Part shown: one piece after another, positions 3,797 through 22,041 of the stretch
Layout of the letters: each line of letters starts with the position of its first letter
Position numbering within the stretch: position 1 is the first letter of the stretch
Source: Xenococcaceae cyanobacterium
GTDB lineage: Bacteria; Cyanobacteriota; Cyanobacteriia; Cyanobacteriales; JBFRWF01
Direction of reading: 5' to 3'
DNA: 64,000 nt
Assembly: GCA_051439465.1 (NCBI GenBank)
Contig: JBFRWF010000106.1
Coordinates: forward strand, 1,582 to 65,581
Program-made: the position numbers and the translations under genes
The notes under the pieces: generated by a model
What the model was told of the DNA's origin: nothing
Database searches by the model: none
The model's input: only the letters and a program-made list of their open reading frames with translations

Positions 3797-5532
3797 ATCT
3801 CCCTCCTATCACTGATCGCATTTAACTGGAGATAATCAACCTGTTCTGATGTCACCCATTCAGCCAACTCTCGCATATCGGAGGCTGCTGCCAACTGCTC
3901 ATAACTGTCTATATGGGCTACGAGGTTATTATCTAACTGTCCTGCCTCTTGAGGAGGTGTATACACCATCTCAAAACTCCGCATCTGCCACGGGCGCAAC
4001 TTGAACAACGCATAGGCAAAGCGACGCGCCAGTTCAACTTGTTTCTGGGTCATGGGGGAAATGTCCTGGATTTGCGCTAGACGTTGCAGATATTCTTTAG
4101 CACAAGTAGAGTCAATTGTAAAGCCTAAATTTGAATAACGTCCCGTACCTGCGGTTAGCACTGGGACCCCGTAGCAAGCCATTTCAATGCCAATCGTACC
4201 CCGCACTGTGAGGCAGTAGTCAGTAATTTCAAAAAATGAGTAGGTGCTGATATCTGTATCTGGCATAACTAACTTAACATGAGAGGGCAGGGTTCCCACC
4301 TCGCTGCGCATCGCTATAGTATCGCGCAACTCCCCCGTATAGCCTTCATACTTGAGTTTCCAGACCAAATCTGGATGCAGCTTGACTACCCAATTTACCC
4401 TGGGATTGTCGCAAGCAGCACGGACGGTTTGCAGCAGCCAGGTTTCATAGTCATCAAAAATACTTTCTCCATAGAAAAACGTGGCATCCCATAAAACATG
4501 GGAAAAAATCACTGCGGTTTTCTTGGCTGGATCCAGATCCAGTTGCTGTCTGACTGCTTCAGCCGGCTTGATTTGCTTGCCTTGGTGTAAGAATTTGCGA
4601 TTGAACCACGTGCCAGACTTGTAACTCTGAGCAAAGTCTTGCATCAACTCGATTTCCCGCTCTGGTTTCCAATCCATTTGCTTGACTTGTTCCCAGGTGC
4701 TAGCATCCAGAGAAAATGGATGCTGGTGACGATTTTCCAAGGTGAAACGTTTGAGGACAAAGCCATTCTTATCCTGGGAGTTCAAATACTGCACTACAGG
4801 GATGTCCCGCTTCAGGCAGACACCAAATATCTCAGCAGCAGGTGAAAGACCTTTTTCTAACACTAAGGCTATGGCAGGTCGAACTTGCTCGAGCATTCTT
4901 TCAGCCGCCATAATATTTTGCTGGGATTGGAGCAAATCGCTATAAACCTCAGCCAAGATATCGGGTTGAGAAATGTCAAATTTTGCAAATTTGTGGCGAT
5001 AAATTACATTTGATAGCACTAATCGCCCTATATCTACGTTTTGGTAAGTCAGACCCAAGAGGTCGCCCAGTGTTGGCTGGCTATGGATAAATTCAACGAT
5101 CTTGGGATCGGGTATTACAGGCGGTTGGGTGGCTACAAATCTACGGAAATTAAGGAAATTGCGATTGCCGAACAACTTGTGATATTGCCGACTCCAAGTA
5201 CCAGAACCCCAATCAACCAATTGGGGACTAAAATCTTGAAGGCGTAAGGCAAGGGATAGGATCCCCTCAAGTTTTAGCCCCTGTACAGTCTGAAAGCTGG
5301 AAATCATTAAAGCAACTTTATTGGGATTTCCAGGGGGGGCGTCCTGGGCAATCTGCTGGAACTGAGCCTTGCAAGCCTGATAGTCTTTCTTGAGTGTCCG
5401 CCAGCGATCGCGCTCTGAGTTGCTAGTAAACAGTCGCAGTCCTTCTGCTAACGGTCCTGCCAATCCCACTCGCTCTAAGTATGACGCTATGCCCAGTTGT
5501 TTAGCTAGCTGCTTGATTCCGCAGTAAGTCAC
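3781..5532 (-). CDS. Capsule-synthesis (KpsS/GT107-like) domain protein, probable CMP-nonulosonate transferase
   Basis: C-terminal VVKLHP motif and TVRGTIGIEMACYGVPVLTAG segment; directly downstream of the cytidylyltransferase. Confidence 0.6.
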   Translation of the reverse strand: MTYCGIKQLAKQLGIASYLERVGLAGPLAEGLRLFTSNSERDRWRTLKKDYQACKAQFQQIAQDAPPGNPNKVALMISSFQTVQGLKLEGILSLALRLQDFSPQLVDWGSGTWSRQYHKLFGNRNFLNFRRFVATQPPVIPDPKIVEFIHSQPTLGDLLGLTYQNVDIGRLVLSNVIYRHKFAKFDISQPDILAEVYSDLLQSQQNIMAAERMLEQVRPAIALVLEKGLSPAAEIFGVCLKRDIPVVQYLNSQDKNGFVLKRFTLENRHQHPFSLDASTWEQVKQMDWKPEREIELMQDFAQSYKSGTWFNRKFLHQGKQIKPAEAVRQQLDLDPAKKTAVIFSHVLWDATFFYGESIFDDYETWLLQTVRAACDNPRVNWVVKLHPDLVWKLKYEGYTGELRDTIAMRSEVGTLPSHVKLVMPDTDISTYSFFEITDYCLTVRGTIGIEMACYGVPVLTAGTGRYSNLGFTIDSTCAKEYLQRLAQIQDISPMTQKQVELARRFAYALFKLRPWQMRSFEMVYTPPQEAGQLDNNLVAHIDSYEQLAAASDMRELAEWVTSEQVDYLQLNAISDRREICAAS

Positions 5533-5568
5533 AATTCCCTCACTCTTTGCTATTACATATTAAGTAAC

Positions 5569-6288
5569 TTATTTTTGCTCCTCTGCCTGACGACGTTTTA
5601 GCCAAAATTCTGCTAAGGCCAGATCGGAAGCGTCGTCAATATCCACTGAATCAGCCATACTCATCTCCAAGGGACGTACCACTTCACCGTATAGTTTCCC
5701 ACTTTCAAGTACTTCCCGTCGCATAGCTAACACAGCAGGACCATTTCGGGCATAAACTTTTGGCTTATCCTGCCGCCGGAGGATGAGTTGCCCTTCCACC
5801 AAAGGCACAAGTATACCATCCTCTAGACCCATTAAGGAAACAGGGTTAAATTGGTGGGGAACCTCTACCACACTAACCACGGTATCTGCATCTGTTTTCA
5901 GCAAGATGTCCACTGCGGCGTCAATATGTTCTGCACGGCGTAGTGGGGAGGTGGGTTGCAGCAGAACCACTACTTCTGGTTGATAGCCTTCGGTTGCTTG
6001 AAGTGCTCCTAGCAGATGTTGTAGCACATTGAGGATGGGGGTATCGTCTTGGGCTAGGTTAGCTGGGCGCATAAAAGGGATTTCAACTCCACACTGCTGA
6101 CCTACTTCAGCAATTTTCTGGTCATCTGTACTCAAAACAACCCGGGTTAGATGTTGGCTTGCTAGGGCAGCTTCACAAGTGTACGCTAGTAGCGATCTTC
6201 CAGCTAGGGAGACAATGTTCTTATTAGGAATTGCTTTTGAACCTCCGCGTGCCGGGATAACCCCTAGTATATTATTCACAAGAATCAA
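5569..6288 (-). CDS. neuA: Acylneuraminate cytidylyltransferase (CMP-nonulosonate synthetase)
   Basis: IPARGGSKAIPNKN, VLSTDD, LQPTSPLR, SVDIDD. Confidence 0.93.
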   Translation of the reverse strand: MILVNNILGVIPARGGSKAIPNKNIVSLAGRSLLAYTCEAALASQHLTRVVLSTDDQKIAEVGQQCGVEIPFMRPANLAQDDTPILNVLQHLLGALQATEGYQPEVVVLLQPTSPLRRAEHIDAAVDILLKTDADTVVSVVEVPHQFNPVSLMGLEDGILVPLVEGQLILRRQDKPKVYARNGPAVLAMRREVLESGKLYGEVVRPLEMSMADSVDIDDASDLALAEFWLKRRQAEEQK

Positions 6289-7442
6289 TTTTTTTTCAGT
6301 ATTTTCCTGACCAAAGTCCTTGCTAGGTTAGGGACTATTTGAATGGCTCGCAGCCAAGTTTTAGGTTCTAATAACATCAATAAGAATGTCTGGCCTACCT
6401 GTCTCCACTGGCGATGTCTTAGGGAGGACTCAAAACACTCAGGAAGACCTTTGAGACGTTGCTGAGTATCTGCTTGCAAAACCACGCCTAAAGCTCTCTG
6501 AAAGCATCGCTGCGCCTCACTCCCTTCATCCATTTGAGCATAGCACTCCCCCGCTTGAAAGAACAGGCGATGCCTATTAACACGAGTGGGCGAGCGCATT
6601 AAACTGGCCACAGCCTGATTCAGCAGAAGGTCGGCGGCTGAGTAATCATTCTCAGCGATCGCTTTTCTGGCTTGCTCGAGCCAGTCTGCTGGAGACTCAG
6701 CAAGCACAGGGAGTTCTCCAGACTGCGGCATGGGCAACCAAAAGTGAATGGAATTACTTCGCAGCCCCCGTCGTTCGGGATAACCAGCTCGTAACCCCAC
6801 CCGTTCTATATCTGCTTCTACTGCCCCAATTAGAGTGGGCTGAATGTGCTTGCTCTGCGCCCATGTCCATACATATTCGGACTCTGAGGACCGTTCCATT
6901 TGGTCTACAAAAGCAATATCTTGAACGATGACTGGCCCTTCAACGCGGGGAAATACTGTGTTAACGTACCACTCAGCAAACCAATCTTCGTGGCAACTAT
7001 CAATCAGCAGAAAGTTGATAGTTTCCTTTACCGAAGGTACGGTTTCCCTGGCATCGCCAATGTGAATAACAAGACGTTGCTGTTCCCACTGACTACACTG
7101 GTTTCCTCGAATAACTTCTTCAGTGGGCTTGCCCTGCATCCTGGGCAGAAGCTCAAAGGAGTGAAGAGTTCCCTTCCCATTGGCACTCAGAGCGGCAAGT
7201 ATATAGTTACTAGACCAGCCAGCGTTGGGAGAAATTTCAAAGGCAATCTCAGGTTGAGTCTCGCGGATTACCATATACATTATCTCACCTTCCACATCCC
7301 CAAAGGTGGTTCCGTAACCCTGAGATTGCATGATGTGAAACTTTTCTCGCAGATTGCGAGCCACTTGGCACAGTTCATTATCATACTTTTTAGATAATTC
7401 TATGAAATTTAGCTGCCTGGTGCTTGGATATAGTTTTGTCAT
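6285..7442 (-). CDS. Class I SAM methyltransferase (Methyltransf_24-like) with C-terminal helical/TPR-like region
   Basis: FEISPNAGWS, LHSFEL, GDARE, LLIDSCH; helical repeat-like tail. Confidence 0.65.
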   Translation of the reverse strand: MTKLYPSTRQLNFIELSKKYDNELCQVARNLREKFHIMQSQGYGTTFGDVEGEIMYMVIRETQPEIAFEISPNAGWSSNYILAALSANGKGTLHSFELLPRMQGKPTEEVIRGNQCSQWEQQRLVIHIGDARETVPSVKETINFLLIDSCHEDWFAEWYVNTVFPRVEGPVIVQDIAFVDQMERSSESEYVWTWAQSKHIQPTLIGAVEADIERVGLRAGYPERRGLRSNSIHFWLPMPQSGELPVLAESPADWLEQARKAIAENDYSAADLLLNQAVASLMRSPTRVNRHRLFFQAGECYAQMDEGSEAQRCFQRALGVVLQADTQQRLKGLPECFESSLRHRQWRQVGQTFLLMLLEPKTWLRAIQIVPNLARTLVRKILKKN

Positions 7443-14685: not shown

Positions 14686-14737
14686 AGTTTTCCTCCTTGA
14701 TATATCATATATTTGTAAATTCTCAAAAAGTGCTGGT

Positions 14738-14926
14738 GTAACCGTTCAGGGGGGCGATGCTCGTGGAGCTGCGCACGCTTACGCGAACGGGAACAGGCTC
14801 TCAGGTAGGGTAAGTCAGGCGATCGGGAATAGACTCTCTAACAGGTTAAGTCAGGCGATCGGGAATAGGCTCTCTAGCAGGTTAAGTCAGGCGATCGCAT
14901 GCGCGATCCCCCCCGTGAACGGTTAC
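14738..14926. mobile_element. MITE with IS66-type ends
   Basis: TIRs GTAACCGTTCA-GGGGGG / CCCCCCC-G-TGAACGGTTAC; near-perfect 8-bp TSD GTGCTGGT (14730-14737) / GAGCTGGT (14927-14934); GTAA ends with 8-bp DR are IS66 hallmarks. Confidence 0.75.
14789..14896. repeat. 3 x 36-bp tandem repeat inside the MITE
   Basis: Unit GGGAAYAGRCTCTCTARCAGGTTAAGTCAGGCGATC at 14789, 14825 and 14861; no spacers. Confidence 0.9.
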
Positions 14927-14962
14927 GAGCTGGTAGAGAAGCCATAGCTTAGCTACCAGCTC
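14927..14962. terminator. Stem-loop, possible terminator or processing hairpin
   Basis: GAGCTGGTAG ... CTACCAGCTC 10-bp perfect inverted repeat; no clear U-tract. Confidence 0.3.
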
Positions 14963-15326
14963 GCCAAACAACCTAAGTAACAGCCAAAGCTTTGGCTCGA
15001 ATCGCGTCAGGTAAAGGTGGGATTTGTCCATCTCCTCGCAACCGCGATAAGCTGTTGCTGCCTTCTCACGAGGTTTCCTAAGCTCTCTACTTCGCGGCGG
15101 AGGGCAAAAGAGACGTTTCCTTGGGTCTTTGTTACAGCACTCATATTTCTGTTAGACCACATTTTGGGACTAATGGCAACCCCTGCACGACCTTGATTTT
15201 TCTTCGGAACAGCTTCCAGCAGTTATTGAGAGGTTACAATGGCAATGTCACTCATTTGTTAGTCTTAACTACAAAGAGCTGTAGAAGCTATCCCTACTAC
15301 TCGCTCAAATTTCAAATTATTGAAAG

Positions 15327-18507: not shown

Positions 18508-19890
18508 TCATTGTTCTTGACAAGATGGGGACTTAGCAACCAAACGCCCCATCTCCTGCGATAAAGCCTCTGCTACAACTAAGGACTTGAAGTACTTCTG
18601 ATAAGTATTCCTCCCTCCCTGCCGAACGCGCAGATTGAGTTCTGAGTCAGTGGCTGCGAGGAAAATCATCTGAGCAACCTCATTAGCTGTGGATCCAACC
18701 AAAGCATTCTCCCCATGGGTTATTTCAGGCATTGCCTTCTTACTATTGCCATGAACAATCAAGCAAAGCCCCATTGACCATGCCACAATATGACGGGTGT
18801 AGGCAGCCTGGTAGGGGCCAGCATTGTTCAACAACAAGAACATATCGCTGGACTTTAGCTCCCTATCCAAATCTTCTACAAAGCCTTGTATGACTATGTG
18901 TTCCTGTTGAAGATACGGTTTTAAGGTTGGGACTACATCACCCCCACCGATGATGTGAATCTGGTAATTTAGCCCCTTCATCATTTCTTTGAGTTTAGGA
19001 ACCACATCCACAAGCAAAAACTTTAAGCCGTAGGTGCCGCCAGTGCGGTTGAGATAACCGATATGCCCGATAATCTTGATTGGATGCTCTGAAGATCTGT
19101 GGGGCAGATTATCTTTGGCAATGCTGACTTGTTTGATGCCTGGGTCGCTCCAGACGTTCCTAATATAGATAGATATGGGGTGTCCTTGCTGACTATAGAA
19201 TTCAGCATTTGAAGCGGTGACGTTGGCAATAACATCAACATCCCTCATCAACCGCAGATGTGCTTGCTTGAATTCCCTGAGTGAGACTTTTTGAACAAAC
19301 TCTCTCAACCCTTGGCGAATGAGACTGGCAACACCCGTTTTTGCTGGTTCTGCTATTCCCAAAAAAAGCGCCTTGTCTTTCATCCGCATCTCAGAGGGAA
19401 TAAAGTCTACATCACCATGATAGGCAATCTTCGGGACTTGGCGTAATCCATAAGTGGCAGCCATACCTTCAGGACTCCAGATTGTGAGGATGGCATCTGC
19501 CTGATGTGACTCGATGCGATCGCCCACAATCTCCCTAACCCGCACGGTTGGGTAATAGTCCTCGATTCGTACCTGTCCCCTCAAAAGCCTCATCAATCTA
19601 CCCAGCTTCCTGAGAGGGGAAGATGAGCGAGTCGATTTCTGGTATTGCAACCCATAAATAGGAGGCAATACAACTACTCCTTGTTCCTTGAGGTGGTTTA
19701 GTTCACTTTCTTCCGATGGCTGGAGGGAGCTGTCACCACGGAACTGGTTGAAAATTAGTTGCAGGAAAATCTCATGTTCCAGACTAACCAAGCCTTTGAG
19801 TAATTCATACGAGACGATGTGAGTTGCGGTGACACCTTCTTGACCATGATTGCGATAAGGCACGGCACTGCCAATCAATAATATCTTCAC
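18508..19890 (-). CDS. GT-B glycosyltransferase (GT4-like)
   Basis: GTG start after GGAGGA; GFVEDL, AWSMG, LRVRQGGR C-terminal GT-B features. Confidence 0.7.
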   Translation of the reverse strand: MKILLIGSAVPYRNHGQEGVTATHIVSYELLKGLVSLEHEIFLQLIFNQFRGDSSLQPSEESELNHLKEQGVVVLPPIYGLQYQKSTRSSSPLRKLGRLMRLLRGQVRIEDYYPTVRVREIVGDRIESHQADAILTIWSPEGMAATYGLRQVPKIAYHGDVDFIPSEMRMKDKALFLGIAEPAKTGVASLIRQGLREFVQKVSLREFKQAHLRLMRDVDVIANVTASNAEFYSQQGHPISIYIRNVWSDPGIKQVSIAKDNLPHRSSEHPIKIIGHIGYLNRTGGTYGLKFLLVDVVPKLKEMMKGLNYQIHIIGGGDVVPTLKPYLQQEHIVIQGFVEDLDRELKSSDMFLLLNNAGPYQAAYTRHIVAWSMGLCLIVHGNSKKAMPEITHGENALVGSTANEVAQMIFLAATDSELNLRVRQGGRNTYQKYFKSLVVAEALSQEMGRLVAKSPSCQEQ

Positions 19891-19933
19891 CAGGACAGTT
19901 CCTCCCAAATAGATTCAACAATCTCTACTTAAT

Positions 19934-20846
19934 ATCGGAATAGGTAGACTTTTACAAGTTTTCCCCTCCACAGTACCGAGCTTACAAGCTTTCCAAGTAC
20001 TCGGCTCCTGCTGTTTTCACTTACTTTGAATGGATTCCCGAAATTCCTAAGAACCTTCTGCTAGAGTTTTCAGGCTTATAACTACTCCGCCTTGGAATTA
20101 ATCGAACCGTTCGACATATTGTATTTGCCTTTCATGGGGACAATTACCCATTCAGCTCTTTCACCCTGTACGCAAGTAGCAACTACCTTTTCGCGCCAAG
20201 ATTATCTAGCACTATGGTTACGATGGCTTTGGTAGATAGCCCCTTATCTTTTCCCATAGGTTAATCGGATTACATTCGTGTTCAGCTTCATTTTCAGCCC
20301 CAACCAAGTCTGCTAACCTTTCGGCTTCTGGCAAATTTTGAACCAGTATCCCCTAGAGTTATAGTCAGGATATAAGTATTTCTTGACGTTTCCTCTTTGC
20401 TTTCGCGTCGGAGGGGCATTCGCTTTTTGGCAGGTCTTACACCCCAAGGAATTGGTACGCCTCACGGCTTCCCTACAGCAAGCTGACCTTGTGGTGGTTT
20501 CATCGTTCCACATTCAATAGATGCGACGGGGTTAGGTTCCAAGTTTACGCCGGGCGCTTTATTGGAGTTGTGAAGATAACCTTCAGAGCTGCTATCTTCC
20601 TTGCATCCTATAGAGGTATCAGTTCATTTCCTCAATCTATTCTTACGACGCCTAATACTTGATTCGCTGTGCGCTAACCATACCCGTCTTCCCCTTGCCT
20701 ATTTGGTACAGGTGAACTCCCTTCCTTTTGGCTTTACCTCTAGCTGTGAAACACTCCTATTGCTAGGAATGCTCCTTTGGTTGGGGACAGACCACAACTC
20801 GCGTCTGGGGATTTCTCCCACTCTTAAATGCGACTTCGACTCGCAC
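19934..20846 (-). mobile_element. ORF-less group II intron (IIB-like)
   Basis: 5' GTGCG at 20846; domain V GAGCCGAGTACTTGGAAAGCTTGTAAGCTCGGTAC (19973-20007) with AGC triad; domain VI ending CCTATTCCGAT; EBS1 TCTGAA complementary to exon end TTCAGA; only an 11-codon IEP stub remains (20082-20117). Confidence 0.9.
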
Positions 20847-22041
20847 TCTGAAATTGGATAATATCCCACATATCCAACAGGTAGGTATCTTCTGGAACCG
20901 TCAGCGTCTTGTAAGCAGTGTGAGGTACACCAACAATAACGATAGAACATTTGGCTATCAATTCTTCCTTAGTCACAAAGTTTGGGTCTTTAACATACTC
21001 GTCGGAACAAATCACTAAAGCTCCATGAAACCTGAGAATCTTTGCTAATTTATAAGATAGGGAATCTCGGATGTCGTCAATATCAGCTTTAAATGCCATG
21101 CCGAGAATTCCAACTAAGCGGTTAGTCAGGTCAATTTTTTGCTCCAGCCTCAAGTGGTTGACGATGAAATTGGGCAGCCCTTCGTTGACCATCATGGCAG
21201 CTTGTCCAAGTTGAAAGTGATTTCCGTAGGAAGCCGCCAACTGCAGCGTGTCTTTTAGCAGACAAGGACCTGCGGCAAAACCAGGTTTGGGAAAATCCTG
21301 AGTACGCTCATAATGGTGGGTCATGGCACTGTAGATCCGATTGTAGTCCGCGCCCTGCTCCGTTGCCATCATATAGAACTGATTGGTAATCGCAAACTGG
21401 ATATAGCGCCAGGCGTTAGAAAACAGTTTTACTAGTTCTGCTTCCTGAACCGAGACGGGTATAGTCTCCACTCCAAGACGACTGAATAAAGCCTCTGCAT
21501 CTCTAACAGCAGTTTCGCTAAAACCAGAGATTATCTGTGGCAATTTTCTGAGTTCCCGAATAGCGTAGCCCTGAACAATCCGCTCTGGACAATAGGCAAT
21601 ATGAATCTTGTGACCCCGTCTATTGAAGAAATCATAGAGGCATTTGGAAGTTCCCGGGTAGATCGTGCTGCGGAGAATCAGGCATTGGTCGTGACGCAAA
21701 TAACCAGTTAGCTGTTCCGCCAGTTCAAGAATTGGTCTAGTTTTGGGATTGAGATATTCATCAACCGGAGTGCCAATTGTAATGATTACCGACTCGGAGC
21801 GGTTTATATCGGACAAGTCATCAGCGATGTGGAGTGATTTTCCCATCACCTTTCTCAGAATTGGCTCAGCATCGTACTCAATAAATGGCATCTCCCCAGC
21901 TTCAATGGTTGCCCGCTTGTTTTGATCGATATCAAACAGTGCTACATGTAAGCCAGCATCAGCCAATACAATGCCTAGTGGCAGCCCAACATGACCAAAA
22001 CCGCCAATGATGATAACGTCGTAACATAAATCTGAGTTCAT
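20824..22041 (-). CDS. UDP-glucose/GDP-mannose dehydrogenase family nucleotide-sugar dehydrogenase (3' end interrupted by the intron; spliced end ...QFQN*)
   Basis: GGFGHVG, TIGTP, LRST, CPER, AGPCLLKD, AFKADIDDIRDS. Confidence 0.92.
   Translation of the reverse strand: MNSDLCYDVIIIGGFGHVGLPLGIVLADAGLHVALFDIDQNKRATIEAGEMPFIEYDAEPILRKVMGKSLHIADDLSDINRSESVIITIGTPVDEYLNPKTRPILELAEQLTGYLRHDQCLILRSTIYPGTSKCLYDFFNRRGHKIHIAYCPERIVQGYAIRELRKLPQIISGFSETAVRDAEALFSRLGVETIPVSVQEAELVKLFSNAWRYIQFAITNQFYMMATEQGADYNRIYSAMTHHYERTQDFPKPGFAAGPCLLKDTLQLAASYGNHFQLGQAAMMVNEGLPNFIVNHLRLEQKIDLTNRLVGILGMAFKADIDDIRDSLSYKLAKILRFHGALVICSDEYVKDPNFVTKEELIAKCSIVIVGVPHTAYKTLTVPEDTYLLDMWDIIQFQSASRSRI

Follow-up and report, generated by a model that had tools for sequence, protein, structure and literature searches.

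We confirmed by sequence comparison that positions 20846..19934 on the minus strand of the window (the whole stretch of DNA analysed, 64,000 nt) are a genuine ORF-less group II intron of 913 nt, located on the sense strand of a nucleotide-sugar dehydrogenase gene. The comparisons establish the identity of the intron, its borders, the pairing of its exon-binding site EBS1, its membership of a family and the conservation of its fold. The Rfam model RF00029 (domains V/VI) matches the minus strand at 19934-20009 over its full length (model positions 1-77), scoring 45.8 bits where the gathering cut-off is 40, the sole gathering-level Rfam match across the 64 kb, and a profile of the family covers the whole length of the intron (E 3.7e-122). 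None of the Rfam D1-D4 models matched the rest of the intron on 19800-21000 at E up to 10, the other rows (mir-124, Xist) being at chance level; of the Rfam models that an earlier sequence-only reading of this DNA had proposed as a check, RF00029 matches and D1-D4 do not. The 5′ end is GTGCG (20846-20842), in agreement with the group II GUGYG, and the 3′ end on the minus strand is ...CTACCTATTCCGAT, where domain VI terminates in CCGAT at 19934 and the final AT fits AY. These two ends and the AGC triad of domain V, by which that reading had recognized the intron, are all present at the coordinates it gave.

Both borders are backed by independent copies, beyond chance. At the 5′ border, a metagenome contig with 91% identity over 20691-20846 (14 differences) diverges into unrelated sequence precisely at 20846, and fragments on two other contigs of the same genome (C93, C454) start at intron base 1-2. 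At the 3′ border, contig C15 repeats the last 26 intron bases identically and ends its match at the last intron base. The recurrence of these ends shows that both borders had been placed correctly from sequence alone. We saw no intron-less DNA junction among the marine-sediment metagenome contigs, which cannot prove its absence.

The host open reading frame (20824..22041, minus strand) encodes a dehydrogenase of the UDP-glucose/GDP-mannose type in which PF03721, PF00984 and PF03720 all exceed their cut-offs. Its 5′ exon (20847..22041, minus strand) stops one base into the final sense codon, and the 3′ exon opens (19929..19933, minus strand) with the AT that finishes an AAT codon (N) ahead of the TAA stop. 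The intron lies three bases ahead of the dehydrogenase stop codon. Joining 20847 to 19933 would yield CAG-AAT-TAA and a predicted spliced protein of 397 aa ending in QFQN*, and the unspliced frame meets an in-frame stop 9 codons inside the intron, giving 405 aa and the end QFQSASRSRI*. The sequence reproduces the arithmetic of both endings as first reported.

Homologues of the dehydrogenase carry sequence-unrelated tails of 3-54 aa (median 12) past a D-x-W anchor; of 119 non-self homologues, 102 had this anchor. The corresponding tail is 7 aa in the spliced and 13 aa in the unspliced form, both ordinary by comparison. Neither a terminal QN nor the string SASR occurs in any of the 119; because the tails are so variable, the C-termini of orthologues cannot discriminate the spliced from the unspliced form. 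A DNA-level search of 60 relatives gave no orthologue for the exons. As the intron falls within this variable C-terminal tail, both the protein ending in QFQN* and that ending in QFQSASRSRI* look viable.

The last six exon bases (IBS1, TTCAGA, 20847..20852, minus strand) form six of six Watson-Crick pairs with EBS1 (TCTGAA, 20582..20587, minus strand), which occupies positions 4-9 of the 10-nt loop of a hairpin (20572..20599, minus strand) with a 9-bp stem, GAAGATAGC/GTTATCTTC. The register is the same in relatives. A minimum free energy fold of the EBS region alone recovers this hairpin and otherwise departs from the family consensus. We scored each family copy for a 6-mer within the hairpin loop that is fully complementary, G-U allowed, to its own exon end. 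By this measure 36 of 51 distinct copies fit their exons, compared with a mean of 7.4 and a maximum of 16 for permuted exons (200 trials), and insertions are present in some of the 15 that do not fit. The perfect EBS1 pairing described in the sequence-only reading is therefore reproduced and covaries across the family.

To locate EBS2 we used the hypervariable columns of 24 near-identical Paraprochloron-type copies, which outside the exon are confined to the EBS1 loop and a patch following a conserved CGTNA; a blind 5-mer scan upstream of EBS1 for EBS2 gave no clear peak. This patch pairs with exon positions −16..−7, mostly −13..−9, over an unbroken run of five bases or longer in 31 of the 50 copies (permuted mean 6.7, maximum 13.8). 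The patch in the dehydrogenase intron (GAATAG, after CGTAA, 20637..20642, minus strand) pairs weakly with the exon, over 4 contiguous bases or 5/6 against TTATCC at exon −15..−10. The putative EBS2 first proposed, ATAGGAT (20605..20611, minus strand), pairs 6/7 with ATCCAAT (exon −13..−7) and lacks family support: it lies on the opposite strand of the EBS2-patch junction, and the 24 Paraprochloron-type copies show no variation in the homologous strand. The chance that a random 7-mer equals this fit is 0.013 for the strand, 0.13 for bases 150-260 and 0.37 for all of domain I. On these comparisons ATAGGAT is doubtful as a real EBS2.

The family EBS3 column complements exon position +1 in 29 of 32 copies, including 7 of the 9 in which that position is not A. 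In the dehydrogenase intron this column (20545, minus strand) is an A opposite the A at +1 of the 3′ exon and does not form the IIB-type pairing; a T four bases downstream (20541) would pair and is the alternative if the local alignment shifts. The first description of the exon-binding sites as intact holds in part: EBS1 (6/6) is sound, and EBS2 (4 contiguous bases, at another location) and EBS3 (A opposite A) are doubtful. The weak EBS2 and mismatched EBS3 mean that splicing could drop, above all at its second step, and their poor fit also suggests an off-target insertion. From a sound EBS1 beside a doubtful EBS2 and EBS3 we infer EBS1-guided insertion at a non-cognate site. A search of the genome for a better-fitting "home" site returned 13 strict matches with no pattern, one position of the search pattern being too loose.

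RNAalifold on a 7-sequence family alignment produced a consensus fold of 126 pairs. In this fold 93.3% of pairing cells are paired, vs 78.8% in column shuffles, and double-sided changes occur at 68 of the 126 pairs, vs 37.8 in shuffles (0/500 shuffles as high); when the partners are offset by 1-3 columns, 10-17 double-change pairs remain. The consensus structure was drawn from the same alignment on which it is tested, a favourable bias, yet the margin is large. Upstream of domain V, 20 helices contain 61 pairs with compensatory changes, as a folded domain I-III would. In the dehydrogenase intron 108 of these 126 pairs can form, and its misses lie mostly at poor alignment near its own EBS1 hairpin. 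In 26 reference copies 459 columns reach a conservation of at least 95%, and the intron keeps 311 of them, similar to its nearest relative (296) and to a Leptolyngbya copy (305), and is therefore no more decayed than its kin. From their look, we take TATGG (20678..20682, minus strand) and CCTAAC (20536-20531) to be a putative GAAA-tetraloop receptor.

Domain V (19973..20007, minus strand) contains the AGC triad, an adjoining A.A pair, tandem U.U pairs in the upper stem and a GAAAG loop. In the alignment to RF00029, it differs from the model at three non-canonical pair positions and by one extra loop base. The A.A pair beside the triad and the tandem U.U pairs are both constant across the family; the extra base, which follows GAAA in the loop, is found in 6 of 58 family sequences, the dehydrogenase intron included. 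Domain VI (19936..19970, minus strand) has a bulged A at 19941 that stays unpaired, with covarying helices on either side; at 8 nt from the 3′ end it lies within the 7-8 nt at which a branch point is expected.

The intron encodes no RT/maturase: its longest sense-strand ORFs are 66 aa (20513..20313) and 41 aa (20419..20294). The sequence-only reading had interpreted an 11-codon ORF, MSNGSINSKAE*, as the stub of a reduced RT gene. This ORF is present in the variable domain-IV region (20080..20115, minus strand), but an RT origin finds no support, as a tblastn comparison of ten intron RTs with the intron gave nothing below E 0.1 (best 0.12) and the ATG of the stub reads ACG in the closest full relative. 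Overlapping it is a domain-IV motif (20105..20133, minus strand) that matches 25 of 29 bases of a different ORF-less intron on contig C28, at an equal distance from domain V. The recurrence of the 29-base motif in a different intron suggests a domain-IV RNA element rather than a coding remnant. The C28 intron (C28:1-1172, same genome) itself appears to lie at the start of what by eye is a putative TnpB-type transposase-like frame.

A first DNA search, over 61 genomes of the same order, recovered relatives of the dehydrogenase intron in 7, and a second, over 401 genomes, in 13, the source genome being included in both counts. A domain V/VI pattern scan over all species returned 54 stretches. 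The records with family members are those of Ca. Paraprochloron terpiosi, Prochloron sp., Prochloron didemni, Chamaesiphon and Leptolyngbya sp. FACHB-321. The closest copy (L045, the same as L104, titled Prochloron didemni) shares 74% identity across bases 1-637 and 90% across 824-912. The next closest relative (L044), at 91% and 69% identity, is interrupted by an insertion that separates intron base 110 from base 127. The 32 full, non-nested copies all lack an ORF and measure 729-1094 nt. RTs beside a family domain V were considered as the family's own, and each belonged to a different, nested intron (L117, L094, L099, L064); no RT-bearing family member was found among the relatives recovered. 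Copies elsewhere lie at unrelated sites, mostly outside long ORFs, as expected for a selfish element. In the Ca. Paraprochloron record, removal of the intron at its predicted borders restores long sense-strand frames for several copies, and two profiles run across such junctions, a sulfatase profile (1-201 then 200-301) and a DUF362 profile (1-102 then 103-199). This is suggestive of splicing in the family, with the qualification that the split genes could be symbiont pseudogenes.

The source genome is a 7.5-Mb assembly of 499 contigs. A look-up of sequencing runs for the locus returned three DNA runs of a single study, one of which includes the window and is labelled a marine sediment metagenome, and no RNA run. 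The assembly contains GCGATCGC repeats, of a type linked with cyanobacteria, and these repeats and the titles of the intron's relatives indicate a cyanobacterial source. It has 19 domain V/VI matches above cut-off, many at contig ends and several nested, and 8 GIIM matches, two of which fall in full-length RT/maturase ORFs, one of 590 aa (RVT_N, RVT_1, GIIM and HNH) and one of 509 aa (RVT_N, RVT_1 and GIIM). The dehydrogenase intron is maturase-less, as first described, and any maturase that serves it must work in trans. A search for full-length sister introns in the same genome, which that description had proposed, came back empty: BLAST returned end fragments of 26-45 nt, and the family profile found the dehydrogenase intron alone and two weak domain V matches. 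With no second family copy and no cognate RT-bearing member assembled, no matching maturase was identified in this genome.

Several smaller relics and copies accompany it. Lone intron 5′-end fragments lie at C93:7018-7062 (45 nt, 91%) and C454:20873-20908 (36 nt, 97%), one of them isolated just past the end of a chaperonin-like gene; they are probably leftovers of lost copies. Short metagenome contigs, 90-95% alike over window positions 20288-20846, have a coverage of 127-156x, where the flanks have ~27x. These sister copies fall outside the binned genome and are either unassembled repeats of the same organism or sequences of another organism.

These data are best explained by a structurally complete intron whose RT gene was lost or never present, which belongs to a spreading cyanobacterial ORF-less family, sits at a near-neutral site and, if it splices at all, does so with help in trans. 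We consider this the likely reading of the sequence. The intron would have reverse-spliced into the dehydrogenase gene on the sense strand, three bases ahead of the stop, guided chiefly by its EBS1 loop and off-target given the poor fit of EBS2 and EBS3. It would be co-transcribed with the dehydrogenase gene, and its removal, if any, would combine ribozyme chemistry with a maturase from another intron of the genome. Persistence may be owed to the variable tail, which would keep both the 397-aa and the 405-aa enzymes viable, and to the retained ribosome-binding site of the next gene. A viable tail either way and a retained downstream ribosome-binding site would together make the insertion near neutral. 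Features of the sequence that would count against this explanation are the EBS2/EBS3 misfit, the extra base in the domain V loop, the lack of a D1-D4 match and the lack of a cognate maturase.

Most of the same features would be expected of a dead relic, an intron that no longer splices and is harmless in its position, so that the cell makes the SASRSRI-tailed 405-aa enzyme and expresses the downstream genes from unspliced polycistronic RNA. Besides the weak EBS2, the EBS3 A opposite A at family-defined positions and the extra domain V base, a relic would account for the lack of a cis maturase and of a cognate family member in the genome, and for an in-frame stop that comes 9 codons in, inside the variable tail; the 45-nt and 36-nt 5′ fragments indicate that family copies do decay in this genome. 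We nevertheless regard a relic as unlikely. The catalytic landmarks are all retained together with 108 of 126 consensus pairs, conservation is not below that of the nearest relatives, EBS1 is still perfect, and the 90-95% alike contigs at 127-156x suggest that the family is active, or recently was, in the sample.

A third explanation assigns the intron a regulatory role, in which a trans-acting maturase would set its splicing and thereby control both the dehydrogenase and the glycan genes that follow it. The window does contain a very long polysaccharide-type gene row, in which nearly all ORFs of at least 100 aa between 1868 and 37536 are on the minus strand with short gaps; it includes glycosyltransferase, methyltransferase, epimerase, asparagine-synthase-like and NUDIX genes. 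The gene next to the intron encodes a group-1 glycosyltransferase by Pfam (18508..19890, minus strand). Its GTG start at 19890 lies ten bases past a GGAGG (19905-19901) and 38 nt past the predicted spliced stop, close to the ~40 nt estimated originally. The unspliced tail is ordinary and this ribosome-binding site is in the 3′ exon, and so we see nothing that makes the expression of either gene depend on splicing. Around the intron we counted 2 terminator-like sites, vs 3.2 expected from shuffles, and 8 promoter-like sites, vs 6.7 expected. The row is broken by a 640-nt gap (14686-15326) ~4.6 kb downstream of the intron.

The proposal that splicing gates ~20 kb of glycan genes therefore finds no support in the comparison: the unspliced gene ends in frame, the downstream gene has its own Shine-Dalgarno sequence and the gene row has a 640-nt gap. 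In favour of such a gate are the place of the intron within a long same-strand row, the maturases encoded elsewhere in the genome, and the stop codon in the 3′ exon, by which an RNA cut at the 5′ site and left unligated would be stop-less. Against it, the unspliced mRNA encodes a complete enzyme, the GGAGG and GTG of the next gene are independent of splicing, promoter- and terminator-like sites show no excess near the intron, the row is interrupted ~4.6 kb downstream, and family copies elsewhere occupy unrelated sites, mostly outside long ORFs. The gate idea is unsupported, position being its sole basis, and we judge it very improbable. In a further reading, which starts from the stop codon in the 3′ exon and the poor fit of EBS2 and EBS3, the intron would be a conditional RNA-processing point, at which a trans maturase sets the share of transcripts that complete both splice steps and so ties a mobile element to polysaccharide output, a reading we hold to be highly improbable. 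If it were true, transcripts with the 5′ cut alone would be stop-less messages in which the dehydrogenase is parted from the downstream glycan genes.

The near-neutral, trans-helped intron that we favour is of a kind already known from Thermosynechococcus elongatus. According to the portions of Mohr, Ghanem and Lambowitz (2010, PMC2882425) consulted, that genome has 17 ORF-less introns that fit their exons and are mostly intergenic, with one near the 3′ end of a gene; their splicing and mobility rely on the "driver" proteins of other introns, and twintrons were formed. The TeI3 introns there resemble the dehydrogenase-intron family in being cyanobacterial, ORF-less and multi-copy, in the fit of EBS and IBS to the exons and in occurring as twintrons. 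Splicing and mobilization of TeI3 in trans are documented in that source and would be shared by the dehydrogenase-intron family. TeI3 also has clear remnants of both ORF ends and related, ORF-bearing TeI4 partners, as far as the same portions describe; we found no RT remnant in the dehydrogenase intron and no cognate ORF-bearing member of its family, which in addition covers several genera and has a domain V with A.A beside the triad and tandem U.U. As trans-spliced ORF-less cyanobacterial introns are described in those portions, the dehydrogenase intron adds another member to a known kind.

The sections of Miura et al. (2022, PMC8919778) consulted state that CL-type introns are significantly increased in Cyanobacteriota only and that ORF-less ones are increased in certain genomes, and group II introns with a twintron are described for Trichodesmium in the part of Pfreundt and Hess (2015, PMC4649490) used here, a likeness by description only. 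A literature search on group II introns in Prochloron gave one unrelated paper and no description of the dehydrogenase-intron family.

For the locus itself the intron has little consequence: it corrects the annotation of one gene end (397-aa spliced form vs 405-aa ORF) and flags an intron overlooked by gene callers. The family is of modest specialist interest as an ORF-less lineage in several cyanobacterial genera for which no cognate RT-bearing member was found, with an unusual yet conserved domain V. The positions of its EBS1, EBS2 and EBS3 can be read straight from covariation, and it would offer a handy natural setting in which to work out what foreign maturases act on ORF-less introns.

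Family copies are a frequent target of other introns and of insertion elements. On C15 (18481-18688) a three-deep nest consists of an intron ending CTACCCTAC inside domain V of a second intron, which in turn lies within domain VI of a copy of the dehydrogenase-intron family; the contig stops inside the nest. The insertion in L044 (4488-6313, minus strand) is 1.8 kb long, with many short G/C-rich repeats and a 209-aa ORF that has no Pfam match. In L073, titled Prochloron sp., a family copy (minus strand, ~5084-6633) is broken by a HEARO RNA (RF02033, 118.9 bits) that adjoins a 446-aa RRXRR+HNH protein, an IscB-type element inside an ORF-less intron. The Chamaesiphon-type copies (L064:1612, L065:1477, L066:1220, L089, L107) start with TTGCGAC, not GTGCG. 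In L064, L088 and L089 the EBS1 loop pairs with the six exon bases preceding TTGCG, and the first intron base is therefore apparently U.
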